49,842 nucleotides of DNA, filler included, from Fervidicoccaceae archaeon (GCA_038734945.1; 5 parts of 5 records of this genome joined end to end with filler, not necessarily neighbours in it), one strand, 5' to 3'; positions 15,001 through 30,000 are shown, counted from the first letter of the whole stretch. Made by a program: the numbers.

Positions 15001-18000
15001 CTGCTTCATTGGGAAAAGCTTTCACTTTTGCCACCAGAATAAAAATTCATGAGAGCTTCCTTTGAAGCCCAATCTCTTCCTTTTGCTTTTATAATATTAT
15101 ATTTATGCTTCAACAGAAAGCATGATAGGGAAAATCATCTCGATGATAGGCAGATGAGGGCCTTCCTCACAGCATCAACTGCTGAGCTGGAGAATATGTA
15201 CAGAACTGGCTCAATCCCATATCCTCCCAGGTCAGCTATAGCATCGGGTGGGGTGCCCATCCTATTCAGAGCACTTTCGAAATCCTTGAGAAGCGAAATG
15301 AGATCAGAGTGCGGCCCTACTTCAAAAACAGCATAATTTTCCCTTTTCATAGCTTCAATGCATTCTCTGCTGTATTTTGCTACGAATGCTGCTGAGACCG
15401 ATGGAAATTTTCTTTTTGCAAGCAGAAGTATGCTTCCTGTATGTCTGCTCCCTCCCCTCACAGGTTCCCCAAGGGCCTCAACCCTTCCACCAGCATTGAC
15501 GAGCTTTCCCGAATATCCCACAACTTCCTCCACAGCTGTTGCTGAGAAGCTAGCTGCCACTATATTCGAGCCGACTTCAGGAATTATATCCGAAGCGTTT
15601 GGAACAGATCTAAGCAGCTCGAACGCAGCCTTTATCTCTTCCACAATTGGATCACTTTCAACTAGGAATATTTTCATGCATATGTCGCAGCTTGCTGGAA
15701 CATCCCGAGAGATCCTCTTATGAAAACTGCAGAGCTGCCCTGTTCTCAAAATAAAATTGAAATAGGAGCTCATCATGCTGAGGTACTCATCCCTTTTCCC
15801 CTCATACAGCTTGCTGGATGCCAGCTCGACTATTCTCCTGACATCCTCTTTCTTCAAGCCAATATTCTCCAGATCTTCATAGTAATCCTCCTCTGGCTTG
15901 CTCAGCAGCTTGTTTATCATTGGCTGGGATAGGCCCATGAGCTTTGCTGTTCTGAATTGCCCAACCCCCTTTTCAACAAGATTTTTTGCAATAAGCCCCC
16001 TGACTTCTGGAGCTACATGCTTGCTGACTAACTCATGGGGAAGCATTTCAGACATCTCATTTCCATTATCAAATAATTATTATCATAACTCGGTTATTAC
16101 TATTTCCCTATATGCTGAGGAAAAAAGCTGCTGTATAAAAGCATTTAAATCGAATGCTTTTCTTTTAATTTAGGGAAAAAAGCAATGGATCCAATGCTAT
16201 CCCTCATAGTTTTGCTGACATTCACCGGGATATTTGCTTCCCTCTTTCAGAGAATTGGGATAAATAGGGTAATCGGCTACCTATTCGGAGGAATAGTCGT
16301 CTATGCATTGAATCAATTTGGAAAAATATCGATAGACCTTCAGTACACAGAGCCGCTCAAGCAAATAGGGCTGATCCTCTTTTTCTTCGAAGTAGGCTCA
16401 ATGTTCAAGATTTCAGAGATGAAGCAGAATTTTACCAGGGTTCTCTCAGCAGAGCTCGTCGCTCTAACTGTCTATTGGATCAGCGCGAGCTTCCTCTCTT
16501 TTCTTCTCTTCTCCTCCGAGCTCGAAAAGCTCGTTCTATTCCTCCTTCTAACAAACTGCTCTACTGCATCCATTGTTGCTCTCCTGTCGAAAAGAGAATT
16601 TGAGAGCCTCATACCAATAGCTGCATTCCAAACATCGCTGGAGGACATGATTCAGTTCTTCCTCTTCTCCATGATTTTGACAGTTGGCTCCTCTCCTCTC
16701 ACGCTTCAAGATGTGGTTCTCTCCTTGATTAAGCTCTCCGGCTCTGCCCTCTTTCTCTACTTTCTCAGCACGAGAGCGCTTAGAAGGCTTCAAGGAAGCT
16801 CATTCCTAGGCAATCCAACCAACAAGTTTCTCCTAGCTCTGTTGATGGCTCTCCTATTCTCAACAATATCGGATGCGATGGGGCTCCCCTCCTTCTTCGG
16901 AGCATTCATAGCAGGTCTATCCTTCAATGCCTCAATAGGAAAGCAGGGAATAGGGGAAATGACTGAGGGGCTGTGGGAGCTTGGGCTTCTTTTCTATTTC
17001 TCCTCCATAGGCTCAGAGTTGGTCAGCATTCTATCCATGGAGAGCTGGATGTTCATGATAGGTGCTGGAATAGCTTTCGGCATCATGTCCTTTGTAATAA
17101 GATCTGTGGCACTATCTGTGGGAGAAATGATGGGAGGAGTGCCTCTGGAGAGCTCAGTGAAAATTTCATTTATACTCTCAACCCTGAGCGAGAATGGAAT
17201 CATTTTCACTGAAATGCTTGGCACGAAAGGAATAATTTCTCCATCCCTCACAGGAATTTCAATTACAGCAGTAATATCATCGCTTCTCCTTCAATCTCAG
17301 ATACTCAGCAGAACGGAAGCTCTATCATCTTTGGCTATCAGAGCTGTTCCAGGACCCCTTCTTGAGAAGATGGCCCACATCTCGAAGCTGTACTATCTCA
17401 GTGTTGATTCAGCACTTCGAATATTCACCATAACCTCCTATTTCTTCGCCTCTCTGCTTGCTATAACTTACTCAATAGATGCTCTGCAGGCTGTGCTCCA
17501 GAGAATAGAGCCAGGCAGCCTCGGCAAAAACGCCATATTAATAGCATCTCTTCTGAGGAGTGCAGGTATTGTTGCTGTACTGATAATTTTCTTCTTCTCA
17601 ATGAGATCCCTGTACAGGCTTAATCTGGAGGGAAGAGCGATTGGTGAGGAATCCTTGAGAAAGCTCAAAGGAGCAATAGGGATTCTCGCCTCAGCTATAG
17701 CAATTGCTGTACAGGCAAACATACTTAAGGACGTGCTGTCCAATTTTGGAATGCAGATAATTGGGCCGCTTGAGCTCATCATAGTATTCCTCTCCATTGC
17801 TGCTATTGCCCTCAATATATTCCTTGCCTGGAAATATAGGCCAAGAAATTCGGATGCANNNNNNNNNNNNNNNNNNNNNNNNNNNNNNNNNNNNNNNNNN
17901 NNTTAATTAATTAANNNNNNNNNNNNNNNNNNNNNNNNNNNNNNNNNNNNNNNNNNNNTCATCAAACGTCATCTTAATGACGCCGGATAACTCATATGGC

Positions 18001-27000: not shown

Positions 27001-30000
27001 TTTTGATTCTGTTAGGTTTAGCTCTTCTTGGTTTCGCTTTAGCTTTTCGGTTTAAAATTAATGTAAGAAATGGCGGGTCGTGTAACATATCACGTTATCA
27101 GGCAATGCTAGCACAGGTTCAGGACTCAGAAAGTGACTACTTATGAAAGTATACGATTGTCATGGCTATTTTGTAATGGAAGACGATAAAACCTACTTTT
27201 GCGAAAAAACTCCTCCGTCTCCTAACGCTCGATGGGTACAACTCTCGCTTTTTAACTCCATTTTCTGCGTTCCATCCTCAACCACACACGTGCGTGCTGA
27301 CTGCAAGAGACTATTTTAAGCTTACTAAGACATGTACGGCAAAACCGATATGTACATAATTCTGTTCATATTAGCTTTGGTAGCCACGCTATACGTTACG
27401 GGCTATTTGGGAAGTACCCAAAACTTGTTAATAATGATGATAGTAGCATTCATTGGTATCGTGCTATTAAATCAATACCAAGAAAATAAGATAATGGCGA
27501 AAGAAGTAGTAGCGTGACCTACCAATGTCCTTTTTTGTTGACGTAGGTGTATATGCGATTTTTTTCGTTTTAGCTAGTTCTACGGCTTATCTTCTAAAAT
27601 CTAGATTTCCCAATGTTAATGGGCGTCTGTTACAGGGCATTATAATCTTGGTTGCTGGTTACGGGTTGAGTGCGCTAGGTACAGGTATAGCTGGCGATAC
27701 AATAACGATAGGCGGATTACTTACTGCGATAACGGGAGCCTTCGCCCAAGTGGCTCAATCTGTTCCCGCACTGGGGTGGTTAAGATGATCACTAGCCTAG
27801 GTTTCTCAAACGCAAATCTTGACACAGTATCTATAGCGTCTCTTCTAATCGTTTATGTTATCTCATCGGCGTCCGCCACAGGTATTACGAAAGTATCTAA
27901 CCTAGGACATGGTTACTTTAGGCTCATTCAGTTCGCTGTGGCAAGCGTCATTACATATTTCATCTCGTTAGTTACCGAAACCGGTGGTATGCTATCGGGT
28001 CTGTTGACGGTATTGCTGGTAGAGGGTATTCTGAACTTCTTAGCTTACAAGCTTAATCTAGGCGCACTTGTGGATCCGGACTATTCAGGGTGAGGATATG
28101 GACAATGTCCTAGTAGCTTTCCTAGTGCTTCTAGTGTTTCTGGTAGTGTTATACGTTTACCTATACCCACGATCAAGCTATAACGTTTTTTCGCTGTGAA
28201 ACCATGGCTGAAATTATTCAAGATATCATAAAGATAGTTATTCAAGTAGCAAAGTATACGTTAGTACCACTCATCAAGCACACATTAGAAGGATTCTTTT
28301 ACGCCATGATGGCATTCTTACGTTATGCTAATGACATCACTAGGCGGTTAATGGTACTGATAAGATAGTACACATAAGATTATTAACATGATTTTCACAT
28401 ATGCGTGTCACGGTTGGCGCTCATTCGTTTTTGATTACAACGGAAGAACCAGACCACGGTTTGATATCCAGATGTTGCGGTAAACTGAATCCTGCATTTG
28501 TCAAGGCAATCGAGGAAGAAAACCTAGACTTTATCTACTTACCTAGATATGACCCTAACGCACCCGAGAGATGCGTTTACGTTACAATTGAACAGAATAC
28601 TAAGATCATTAAGGACTATTGGTTCTGCCACGTTTTTAACTTGCTACGAGAATATCGCAATTTCTTAGAAGTTCATTAACTGTCATAAGTCATGCTAAGT
28701 GATATTGTTAACGCTATTGAGTCCTTTGATAATGCCATCTCTGAGTATAGACAGAAAACTTATCAAGCGTGTGAGATACTTCCGCCAGTGAACTCTGTAC
28801 CCTCGCTATTCGCTAATCTTCCTGTTATTATCCTGTACATCATTACGTTACCCATACGTTTCCTTTTATGTCCATTACTTAACACAATAGGAAACCCATT
28901 ATGTTTGCTTTACAATTTAGTCNNNNNNNNNNNNNNNNNNNNNNNNNNNNNNNNNNNNNNNNNNNNTTAATTAATTAANNNNNNNNNNNNNNNNNNNNNN
29001 NNNNNNNNNNNNNNNNNNNNNNCTGGAAAGATCAGGGCCGCTCCAACCGCCATTATAAGAATTCCAAGAATGAAGAATGTCAGTTTTCCGGAGAAAATAA
29101 TATAGATGCTGATGGCGCTTCCTGCTACTATTATAGCTACTGAAGAAATATCTATTAATTTGTATACAAATGGCTTTGGTTTTATTTTTGTTTCGTATAT
29201 TTCCTGCGGCATACTGACCTCCTCCCCGACCTAAAGTGCGAGGGTTCTGGGAAGGTTTAGGGCTACATTCCCAGCTCTCGCTGGGTTCAGCCCTGCGCCT
29301 GGTCTCAAGCGCATTACCCCTACCCCATATAGAGCGGAGCTCGGGGCTATGGTTTTAGCTTTGAGCAGCATGTTGAATGCTCCTACCAGGTCTGCATTGA
29401 ACACATTGCTGTGTTTGTAGCACTTCAATAATCCTCTGTATATCCTCTTGTGCTCTTGGTTCTTCACTCTGCATAGTGGGCAGGTGGAAGAAGTGTTCTC
29501 TTCATTAACGAGCTCCACCTTTATACCGTACTCTTCTCCTACCTCGATCACTCTTCTCAACAAGTACCCGTATGTCCATGCGTGAACTACTTCGAAGTTG
29601 AGCTTAGAGTTCTTATTACCGTTTTGAGCTATGTATTTTGGATAGCCAACCAATACCCTTAATATGCCTCTCCGGTAGAGCCGCTCCATAGCGTTCCTCA
29701 CAGCCCAGTTAATGTAGTCCTTCACCTGCCTCCTCCACCTCTTGTACATTCTCCTGAGCCTCATGGAGGTCTTCAATCCATACCTGTTCAAGGTGGATTG
29801 ATAATCTGCTAACCTCTTTCTCCAGTAGAAGCTAATGCTCTTCAACGGTCTACCTGAAATAATTAGAGCTGAACCGTCCTCCATATACACAGCCAACAGG
29901 TTATTAATGCCTATGTCTATTCCAGCAACTTTATCTCCCAGAGGCTTTGCTGGAATTTTAACCCATTCATCCTTAACTATCTTCTCAGATACCTCGAATG

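Follow-up and report, generated by a model that had tools for sequence, protein, structure and literature searches.

A deeply divergent P98-type pyramid protein gene on bottle-shaped-virus-like contigs binned with a Fervidicoccaceae archaeon

A homologue of the P98/C92-type pyramid protein (PVAP) is encoded among ampullavirus-type genes on a short viral contig that was binned with an archaeal genome. Bottle-shaped viruses inhabit acid hot springs, and PVAP is the small membrane protein from which rod-shaped and icosahedral archaeal viruses make their exit pyramids. We put at about 70% the probability that this contig (C5) and two others (C7 and C8) are ~22.3 kb of one mis-binned, ampullavirus-like virus, which builds pyramids from this protein and leaves its host by lysis. 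The window, meaning the whole 49,842-nt stretch of DNA analysed, is a chain of contigs from one 1.34 Mb, 9-contig bin (G000), with C4 at 1-17858, C5 at 17959-28922, C6 at 29023-37996, C7 at 38097-44015 and C8 at 44116-49842. GC content was 0.389 in C5 (10,964 bp), 0.403 in C7 (5,919 bp) and 0.397 in C8 (5,727 bp), 3-6 points lower than in the remaining six contigs of the bin (0.42-0.452). The survey's finding that these three are low-GC, ampullavirus-like viral contigs was borne out by this difference and by gene families of Acidianus bottle-shaped virus (ABV), whose homologues occur along the whole length of C5, and the viral nature of the three contigs is clear. A search of the phage collection with 7,964 of the 10,964 bases of C5 gave no match at the DNA level, as had been reported.

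All seven ABV proteins named previously were matched again by tblastn, namely ORF105 (54%), ORF315 (30%), ORF150b (43%), ORF167 (40%), ORF174 (42%), ORF166 (29-40%) and ORF346 (32%), and further matches were obtained to ORF163/Cas4-like, ORF107b, thymidylate kinase and the polymerase (24%). For comparison we used eight ampullavirus-like sequences, Acidianus bottle-shaped viruses 1-3 (ABV1-3) and five others. The Cas4-like nuclease of C5 (ABV ORF163 homologue, 19993..20526, minus strand; phrog_1706, E 2.2e-9) was matched in five of the eight by tblastn (24-32% identity). Matched in all eight were the minus-strand homologues of ORF105 (21661..21933; phrog_18951, E 4e-17; 39-54%), the glycosyltransferase ORF315 (22238..23128; phrog_4356, E 5.1e-26; 27-34%) and ORF150b (24744..25214; phrog_21550, E 4.6e-42; 36-51%), and the plus-strand homologues of ORF167 (25583..25990; phrog_19713, E 1.1e-33; 38-43%) and ORF174 (26212..26718; phrog_21625, E 2.3e-42; 37-43%). 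Among 50,697 phage records, matches to the ORF174 homologue were limited to six, all of ABV1-3. Six small, mostly hydrophobic plus-strand ORFs follow at 26715..28093, in the position of ORF85-ORF112 in ABV and with weak matches to phrog_19673 and phrog_21940, and the N-terminal part of an ORF166-like gene (28692..28922, plus strand) is cut by the end of C5. C7 contains an ORF166-like gene (38135-38617), an ORF346-like gene (38605-39867), a 676-aa ORF without a match (41313-43343) and a thymidylate kinase cut by the contig end (43633-44015; PF02223, E 1.2e-8).

C8 is the polymerase arm. Its protein-primed family B polymerase (pPolB; 47266..49077, minus strand; PF03175, E 6.8e-34) is 24-26% identical to those of ABV1-3 and M270/M271. 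The PHROG matches given in the survey were likewise recovered, for the polymerase (phrog_1907, E 7.1e-60), the glycosyltransferase and the Cas4-like nuclease as well as for the weakly matching thymidylate kinase and excisionase. In total, these contigs have about ten gene families in common with ampullavirus-like sequences (24-54% identity), with part of the gene order preserved: Cas4-like, ORF105, glycosyltransferase, ORF150b, ORF167, ORF174, ORF166, ORF346, thymidylate kinase and pPolB. The order ORF167, ORF174, small membrane ORFs, ORF166, ORF346 and a large ORF matches that of ABV. The core genes of the Ampullaviridae are pPolB, the Cas4-like nuclease, the glycosyltransferase, thymidylate kinase and conserved hypothetical proteins (PMC5882107), and the shared core genes were found across C5, C7 and C8. 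Judged by protein similarity, then, the contigs are kin to ampullaviruses. With ABV, ABV2 and ABV3 (Ampullaviridae, Bottigliavirus) they have in common these families, part of the gene order, a protein-primed polymerase and a similar size (22.6-28.5 kb in ABV genomes), but the identities are low, the polymerase is very distant, and GC content is 39-40% against 35% in ABV (PMC5882107).

Two overlaps between contigs that had been taken as a sign of several related strains were reproduced, one joining the end of C5 to the start of C7 (C5 10696-10963 to C7 1-268, 78.8%) and one joining C5 1-195 to C8 546-740 (95.4%). For C5 and C7 the strain explanation holds. A single contig of a related virus from another bin (G006:C169) covers C5 7977-10958 at 85% and C7 1-375 at 87% in one piece; since it spans both ends, C5 runs into C7, and the 79% overlap, which includes the truncated ORF166-like gene of C5, represents a single locus seen in two variants. 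C5 and C7 thus derive from different variants, and C7 continues C5, which forms the middle of the viral genome.

Only CRISPR spacers and the 195-bp, 95% repeat link C8 to the other two contigs. If C8 is flipped, this repeat might mark the inner border of an inverted terminal repeat, but any placement or orientation of C8 relative to C5-C7 would be conjectural. Ampullavirus genomes are linear dsDNA of about 22-28 kb, bounded by inverted terminal repeats and with a non-coding RNA gene near one end. No inverted match was found between contig ends, the terminal repeat itself being absent from the assembly. At 44150..44450, adjoining the first minus-strand gene of C8, lies a GC-rich (62-68%) non-coding element on the minus strand with a very stable predicted fold (z = -7.8 over 300 nt on the minus strand, -5.4 on the plus strand). 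It matched no Rfam family and is possibly an RNA gene. The GC patch of ABV at 601-750 has a fold z of +1.5 and no sequence similarity to this element.

The spacers came from two CRISPR arrays (271 spacers) of a complete genome of the same order and another family (G286). Seven of the 271 matched C5, C7 or C8 at E < 1e-3, with all three contigs targeted. When the whole 1.34 Mb bin was taken as the target, five of these seven still passed, all of them on the three viral contigs, and the other 1.32 Mb of the bin had no match at E < 1e-3; nor, at that cutoff, did eight other ampullavirus-like sequences. Mapped protospacers include 44409..44446 in C8 (spacer 993984-994021, 36 of 38 bases), 24443..24480 in C5 (spacer 994047-994084, 31 of 38 bases, 25 of them consecutive), 41550..41589 in C7 (spacer 994175-994214, 38 of 40 bases) and, from the second array, 43551..43585 in C7 (spacer 1010119-1010162, 32 of 35 aligned bases). 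TCN was present at the 5′ flank in 4 of 6 mapped protospacers. The C8 protospacer lies within the GC-rich element.

Because spacers of this one genome are directed against all three contigs, C5, C7 and C8 are tied together. It is nevertheless conceivable that at least two viruses are represented, an ampullavirus-like one in C5 and C7, with C8 as a separate small polymerase-bearing element. Such a reading would fit the absence of an exact assembly overlap between C8 and either of the others, the running on of C5 1-195 and C8 546-740 into unrelated genes, and the polymerase, for which the phage collection has nothing closer than a 6-kb uncultured archaeal virus (31% across 51% of the polymerase), ABV being more distant. 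We regard it as improbable: three of the matching spacers, directed against C8, C5 and C7, sit within 230 bp of one another in one G286 array, every core gene is present in a single copy over the three contigs, whose total is of ABV-like size, the G006 bin has fragments akin to both C5/C7 and C8, and C8 is arranged like the left arm of ABV, with a polymerase and then small ORFs on the same strand. Even two viruses would leave the combination of PVAP and ABV genes on C5 in place.

The G286 spacers also suggest that the viral contigs were mis-binned. The host had been left open, which no longer fully applies, since a genome of another family, which may point to the host, has spacers to all three contigs. 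Residence of the element in the G000 organism, as a provirus or in plasmid-like form, appears very unlikely. One may point to the first 34 bases of C8, which match G000 contig C2 at 237515-237548 (33/34, E 4.6e-8), to a weak excisionase-like match at 46985-47263 on C8 and to the lack of CRISPR arrays in G000 that could argue against residence. However, the 34 bases fall in an ordinary 219-aa ORF and not at a tRNA, no integrase was found on the viral contigs, virus fragments related at 85% occur in the bin of another family (G006), matching spacers were found only in a third family (G286), and the GC content of the viral contigs is below that of the bin.

The PVAP gene lies at 21112..21417 on the plus strand of C5 and encodes 101 aa when counted from the first ATG. 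The real start is likely the ATG at 21145, four nucleotides after a GGTGA at 21136-21140; the resulting 90 aa are the length of two members of the protein's own sequence cluster. Upstream is a TATA-like box, TTTAATTAA (21063..21071, plus strand), read directly from the sequence as a putative promoter, and a T-rich tract directly 3′ of the stop codon (21429..21443, plus strand) is similarly read as a putative archaeal terminator. With minus-strand genes on either side, the PVAP gene looks like its own transcription unit. Since ABV-type genes flank it on both sides within C5, its combination with them is independent of how the contigs are joined.

The reported match to phrog_8367, 'pyramid forming protein', was reproduced exactly (E 1.3e-13, residues 23-100); these residues align to profile positions 14-91 of 96, and a second profile search gave E 5.1e-14. 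By tblastn, the ORF matched the SSRV1 PVAP (36%, E 2e-6) and an STIV1 contig (E 1e-6). Among 1.84 billion representatives, phmmer returned four matches at E <= 0.001: the protein's own 96% cluster, the SSRV1 PVAP (3.8e-11) and two further PVAPs. The cluster has eight members from several assemblies, one of them on a 22,257-bp contig, and IMG/VR contained no relative, as claimed. The protein aligns end to end with the family and retains all six invariant columns. Its single hydrophobic segment, at residues 15-37, forms the N-terminal membrane segment (Kyte-Doolittle peak 1.99 in the 19-residue window from residue 16), with no second such segment, and an AlphaFold2 model from 62 aligned sequences was all-helical (helices 2-69 and 73-89, mean pLDDT 81.7). 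The profile match, the length of 90-101 aa with one N-terminal transmembrane helix and the helical remainder are those of the PVAP family.

At the same time, no PVAP seen is more divergent. Its branch falls outside all 123 other PVAPs, and its distance to every other sequence in a set of 125 is 2.0 substitutions per site or more, against a median of 0.41 among the rest; of the 36 columns conserved at >=90% across 60 other PVAPs it keeps 14, and the core motif ESIKDTTT has become QALQDIST. The nearest known PVAP is 38-39% identical, and that of SSRV1 38%. In sequence terms it is a genuine, full-length but deeply divergent P98/C92 homologue. Such depth, together with near-identical proteins in at least eight sequence variants from several assemblies and the lack of any rudiviral neighbour gene, makes it hardly credible that the gene is an assembly chimera or was very recently acquired from a co-resident rudivirus or turrivirus. 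In favour of that origin are a gene GC content of 0.458 against 0.389 for C5 and the hot springs that rudiviruses and ampullaviruses have in common, according to a passage in bioRxiv 10.1101/2020.01.16.907410.

Because the protein is so divergent, we infer its function, which could have been altered, given the 14 of 36 conserved columns kept and the changed motif. A PVAP descendant that no longer builds pyramids and has some other role as a small membrane protein, such as envelope component or holin-like disruptor, is possible but rather unlikely. The very long branch and the lost columns would agree with this, as would a weak holin match across the membrane segment (phrog_2073, E 0.0076) and the enveloped virions of ampullaviruses, whose genomes are rich in small membrane ORFs (PMC5882107). 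Against it stand the PVAP-typical length, membrane topology, helical content and whole-length alignment; many of the altered conserved columns are conservative replacements, and the passages on the family in two reviews (PMC10791045, PMC10551542) give no other function for any member.

Pyramid building by the C5 protein, as proposed in our preferred reading, is modelled on known systems. Like SIRV2 P98, STIV C92 and SSRV1 ORF21-98, it is a small protein (90-101 aa against 92-98 aa) from a stand-alone gene, in which a membrane helix at the N terminus precedes further helices and the invariant N, F, T, D-V and K positions are retained; unlike them, it forms a deep branch of its own, at 38% identity at best, in an ampullavirus-like and not a rudivirus or turrivirus genome. 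Other small viral membrane proteins, SIFV gp43 and one of SEV1, make six-sided exit pyramids in Sulfolobales and have no sequence similarity to P98/C92, according to statements in the same two reviews (PMC10791045, PMC10551542).

Whether ABV itself has a very distant P98-type PVAP had been left open; a profile search found none by HMM in ABV1-3. The sole ampullavirus family resembling PVAP in profile-profile comparison (81-87%) was phrog_15262 (ABV ORF71(in), ABV2 gp29, ABV3 gp47), which ABV1-3 and all four metagenome loci covering the region encode and which is a candidate remote relative of PVAP. Its members share with PVAP a small size (71-82 aa), a membrane helix at the N terminus and a helical tail, and no other ampullavirus family aligns with the PVAP profile past the membrane helix. 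They differ in the absence of an HMM-to-sequence match in either direction, in being ~14 residues shorter in the middle and in a genome position other than that of the C5 gene. This family had no blastp match in C5, C7 or C8 and no HMM match in G000 at E <= 1, although the gaps between contigs could hide one; the P98-type PVAP appears to stand in its stead.

We propose that C5, C7 and C8 would be parts of a linear dsDNA genome from a single virus population comprising strain variants, belonging to the wider bottle-shaped-virus (Ampullaviridae-like) assemblage, presumably with a virion of that shape, and placed by binning with a 1.34 Mb archaeal genome to which it is unrelated. The genome would be replicated by its own protein-primed family B polymerase. 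A deep-branching PVAP, expressed from its own transcription unit, would occupy the place of the small membrane protein conserved in other ampullaviruses. By analogy with SIRV2 and STIV, the 90-aa protein would use its N-terminal helix to insert into the membrane of the host, and its helical C-terminal part would polymerise into pyramids, which would break through the S-layer and, late in infection, open to release virions assembled inside the cell; exit would then be lytic. ABV, the sole cultured ampullavirus, has been described as non-lytic (PMC5882107). A PVAP gene in an ampullavirus-like genome is previously unreported for viruses of the bottle-shaped type.

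The survey's finding rests on a reading frame at 21112-21417 on the plus strand of the window (contig C5), which encodes 101 aa when read from its first ATG and again matched the PHROG family phrog_8367, 'pyramid forming protein' (E 1.3e-13, residues 23-100). The remaining PHROG and Pfam matches of the viral contigs were also obtained again. The encoded P98/C92-type pyramid protein, hereafter PVAP, aligned over its full length with the SSRV1 (38% identity) and SIRV11 (30%) PVAPs, and likewise with an STIV1-like PVAP. A tblastn search with it recovered rudivirus and STIV1-contig genes annotated as 'pyramid forming protein', the other matches being noise at E values of 3-5. 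A phmmer search of 1.84 billion representative proteins returned four at E ≤ 0.001, three of them PVAPs and the fourth the 96% cluster to which it belongs; a PVAP profile collected 197 clusters at E ≤ 0.01 and an exact-word search for relatives found a single cluster. The 8 proteins of its own cluster come from several assemblies; two have an annotated length of 90 aa, and one is encoded on a 22,257-bp contig. Searches of IMG/VR, GTDB species genomes and JGI metagenomes by peptide patterns detected no relative.

The annotated length of 90 aa corresponds to an ATG at 21145, located 4 nt after GGTGA, and this start removes an N-terminal extension that is absent from other PVAPs. A TATA-like sequence read upstream of the gene (TTTAATTAA, 21063-21071), together with a T-tract directly past the stop codon, suggests that the gene is transcribed alone, flanked as it is by minus-strand genes. 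The protein has one hydrophobic segment, at residues 15-37, and its AlphaFold model consists of two helices with a mean pLDDT of 81.7. A four-copy complex prediction scored 0.00, which counts neither way, and no solved PVAP structure is known to us. A tree of 126 sequences placed this PVAP and its twin at least 2.0 substitutions per site from all others, compared to a median of 0.41 from SIRV5 to all others. All six invariant columns of the family are kept, as are 14 of the 36 columns conserved in at least 90% of 60 other PVAPs, and many of the changes are conservative. Judged by this long tree distance and low column conservation, the protein is an old, separate branch of the family rather than a recent loan or an assembly chimera.

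Among 325 genomes of the order, PVAP matched only the bin itself (G000) and, weakly, the genome G021 (E 9e-4). The latter match is a 111-aa frame on the minus strand at 429-761 of a 2,117-bp contig (G021:C38) in a bin of family f3; it is PVAP-like and still more distant, scoring a weak E of 0.0026 against the PVAP profile, and it carries a membrane helix and a 'TTTLAINAVQ' motif. Separately, a 9,176-bp contig deposited as part of a 'Candidatus Nanopusillus sp.' MAG encodes a canonical 98-aa PVAP (P0092); the contig is probably a further viral one binned with a cell genome.

In order to place the contigs C5, C7 and C8 among viruses, all of their ORFs were compared by tblastn with eight ampullavirus-like sequences: the Acidianus bottle-shaped viruses ABV, ABV2 and ABV3, two 26-kb contigs of one Sulfolobales MAG (M270 and M271), and three metagenome loci. 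All seven ABV matches named by the survey recurred. Homologues of ORF105, the glycosyltransferase, ORF150b, ORF167 and ORF174 were matched in all eight sequences at 27-54% identity; the ORF166 family was also matched in 8 of 8, the ORF346 family in 7 and the thymidylate kinase in 2, and the Cas4-like nuclease and the polymerase had matches in all five complete ampullavirus-like genomes. ABV and the virus described here present an identical run of ORF167, ORF174, small hydrophobic ORFs, ORF166, ORF346 and a large ORF. A search of 50,697 phage records for ORF174 homologues gave six ABV1-3 records and no others, and an ORF174 alignment matched only the ABV, ABV2 and ABV3 genomes in IMG/VR. Since the ABV-type families, the gene order and the specificity of ORF174 agree, C5, C7 and C8 are assigned to an ampullavirus-like virus, whose genome is not closed. 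Its distance from ABV is roughly equal to that of other uncultured lineages, whereas the polymerase is much farther off. This polymerase, on C8, belongs to the protein-primed family B enzymes (PF03175, E 6.8e-34; phrog_1907, E 7.1e-60) and has 24% identity to that of ABV; within the phage collection it best matched an uncultured archaeal virus of 6 kb, at 31% over 51% of its length. As the survey had stated, the phage collection contained no DNA match to the contigs, C5 having been queried over 7,964 of its 10,964 bases. The two MAG contigs (C270 and C271 of G325, which equals G280) are 26.6 and 26.0 kb long at 51% GC, and their gene order is rearranged compared to ABV.

Both overlaps between the viral contigs were reproduced, at 95.4% identity over 195 bp for C5 and C8 and at 78.8% over 269 aligned bp for C5 and C7. 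A DNA search of the 325 genomes showed that G006, a bin of a different family, contains a 3,091-bp contig corresponding in one continuous piece to C5 7977-10958 (85%) and C7 1-375 (87%), as well as a second contig of 2,662 bp that is 68-77% identical to the polymerase region of C8. Because the longer contig covers both, C5 ends and C7 begins within one locus, and C5 runs into C7. Their similarity could have reflected tandem paralogues, a reading that the single copy in this contig (G006:C169) rules out. With an overlap identity of 79%, C5 and C7 were thus assembled from different variants, in line with the survey's view that several related strains are present. By synteny with ABV, C8 would lie to the left of C5; alternatively, with C8 flipped, an inverted terminal repeat would have the 195-bp repeat as its inner edge. 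The assembled viral contig ends showed no inverted repeat. A break of C5 at the point where such a terminal repeat becomes identical to C8 was ruled out by mismatches at the outer end and by the longest exact stretch common to C5 and C8, which is shorter than the apparent k of 127 of the assembler.

C8 also contains a 300-nt non-coding stretch (C8 35-335, window 44150-44450) of 62-68% GC in a virus of 39-40% GC. Compared to shuffled sequences, it folds with z = -7.8 on the minus strand (-178 kcal/mol) and z = -5.4 on the plus strand. The stretch is a possible structured viral RNA, on the same strand as its neighboring genes. No Rfam family was assigned to it, the only matches being two sub-threshold ones to miRNAs. 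The GC patch of ABV, at 601-750, is of ordinary stability and shows no similarity to the C8 element, and the lack of unusual stability is the reason that no relatedness of the two as RNAs is claimed.

The bin G000 comprises 1.34 Mb in 9 contigs and is 99.95% complete, and the window chains several of these contigs. GC content is 0.42-0.452 in its six non-viral contigs, which include C4 (1-17858) and C6 (29023-37996, 0.434), and 0.389, 0.403 and 0.397 in C5 (17959-28922), C7 (38097-44015) and C8 (44116-49842), respectively. The ends of C6 match contig ends of C3 and C2 exactly over 127 bp, and 1.8 kb of C6 is 83% identical to C2 417578-419405; C6 looks like an alternative path through a k=127 assembly graph, representing a strain variant and not belonging to the virus. 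The first 34 bases of C8 (window 44116-44149) match C2 237515-237548 of the bin at 33 of 34 positions (E 4.6e-8) and are followed by a C-run, and their counterpart in C2 lies within an ordinary 219-aa ORF. This match could reflect chimeric assembly, a trace of recombination or a junction.

Evidence on the host came from G286, a complete 1.84 Mb genome of family f11 (the bin belongs to f1), which carries two large CRISPR arrays built on one and the same 25-nt repeat (G286:C1:983639-997384 and 1006630-1011957; 190 and 84 repeats found). When the 271 spacers taken from both arrays were searched against the viral contigs at E < 1e-3, seven matched C5, C7 or C8, with top matches of 36 of 38 bases on C8 (one protospacer lying in the GC-rich element), 38 of 40 and 32 of 35 on C7, and 31 of 38 on C5, including 25 in a row. 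Five of the seven remained significant with the whole bin as the database, all of them on C5, C7 or C8, while none of the 271 matched the remaining 1.32 Mb of the bin or the eight other ampullavirus-like sequences. Four of the six mapped protospacers are flanked on the 5′ side by TCN, which we take to be a Sulfolobales type I PAM. Spacers for C8, C5 and C7 occur in one array within 230 bp; the virus-matching spacers stand side by side, a pattern as after an acquisition burst from a single invader. Matching all three contigs, the G286 spacers link C5, C7 and C8 as parts of one virus or of very closely related ones, and point to a host within the G286 lineage. Short DNA matches in G278, G274, G293 and G215 from the order-wide search lay outside repeat arrays and were discarded as chance. 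Given the spacer link, the lower GC content and the related fragments in G006, yet another family, the presence of the three contigs in G000 is likeliest due to mis-binning. A simple k-mer finder detected no CRISPR arrays in G000.

Whether ABV itself has a very distant PVAP had been left aside by the survey, and the profile search gave a divided answer, in that no P98-type gene was found by HMM and a candidate relative emerged by hhalign. The PVAP alignment had no match at E ≤ 1 in ABV, ABV3 or the G325 MAG, phrog_8367 had none at E ≤ 10 in ABV, ABV2, ABV3 or G325, and an unfiltered hmmsearch with the PVAP profile over all fetched loci reached at best E 0.08 outside the known PVAPs and G021. 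The weak PVAP matches recur on one conserved small protein, phrog_15262 (ABV ORF71(in), ABV2 gp29, ABV3 gp47 and metagenome orthologues), of which several members bear the automatic JGI name 'Tfp pilus assembly protein PilE'. This family forms 41 clusters at 90% identity in the large database (P0013-P0053), many of them on 16-28 kb contigs, and by this count the diversity of ampullavirus-like viruses in metagenomes is far greater than that of the three named genomes. In hhalign comparisons with the PVAP family, phrog_15262 scored 81% with small profiles (E 1.2e-5, 65 columns), rising to 84-87% when the profiles contained 123 and 41 sequences; the alignments span 62-68 columns, have a gap of 14 residues and continue beyond the membrane helix to include the motif region. 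Among 70 family alignments, the other small-ORF families of ampullavirus-like genomes scored at most 14% against PVAP. In the reverse comparison, PVAP ranked first of 63 SSRV1 ORFs (14.6% vs 1.3%) and nominally first of 44 C5 ORFs, by a negligible margin (2.7% vs 2.3%). A divergent copy, a 71-aa ORF scoring 73.5% to the gp47 profile by hhalign, is present at 5178-5390 (-) of M270. The phrog_15262 gene was not found in C5, C7 or C8, and PVAP and phrog_15262 were not seen together in one genome. These profile comparisons are suggestive, not proof, of a kinship between phrog_15262 and PVAP, as profile scores are inflated by membrane helices and the two families were not connected by any HMM-to-sequence search. 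A wider reading is that pyramid egress is general to bottle-shaped viruses, with phrog_15262 as a remote shortened PVAP homologue, the virus described here carrying the classical version in the same slot, and ABV exiting by pyramids too; we regard this as a rather doubtful proposition. SIRV2 was once described as non-lytic. If the wider reading is true, the PVAP superfamily would link at least three unrelated virus families.

To our knowledge, nothing is known of the exit of bottle-shaped viruses past 'no apparent lysis'. By homology with P98 and C92, the 90-aa protein would insert in the host membrane via its N-terminal helix and polymerize into pyramids, which would breach the S-layer and then open to release virions, so that exit would be lytic. 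We give a probability of about 0.65 to the pyramid step being carried out by this very divergent PVAP. According to PMC10791045 and PMC10551542, P98 and C92 each suffice to form seven-sided pyramids in the membranes of archaea, bacteria and yeast. The proposed lytic exit differs from the description of ABV as 'non-lytic' (PMC5882107). In four sources (PMC10791045, PMC4456609, PMC10551542 and bioRxiv 10.1101/2020.01.16.907410), P98-type pyramids are assigned to rudiviruses and turriviruses, and those of SIFV and SEV1 to unrelated or unknown proteins. The words pyramid and egress are absent from PMC12824867, and no link between ampullaviruses and pyramids was found in the literature covered, which did not extend to subscription papers and supplements, where an earlier report is possible.

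A P98-type gene in an ampullavirus-like genome would provide the first testable exit mechanism for bottle-shaped viruses, and shows the pyramid module to move between unrelated virus families. As the most divergent PVAP known, the protein would help to define what self-assembly needs, and the spacer link offers a concrete host lineage of a cultured type. The possible kinship of phrog_15262 with PVAP would, in addition, open the non-lytic status of ABV to a simple expression test.
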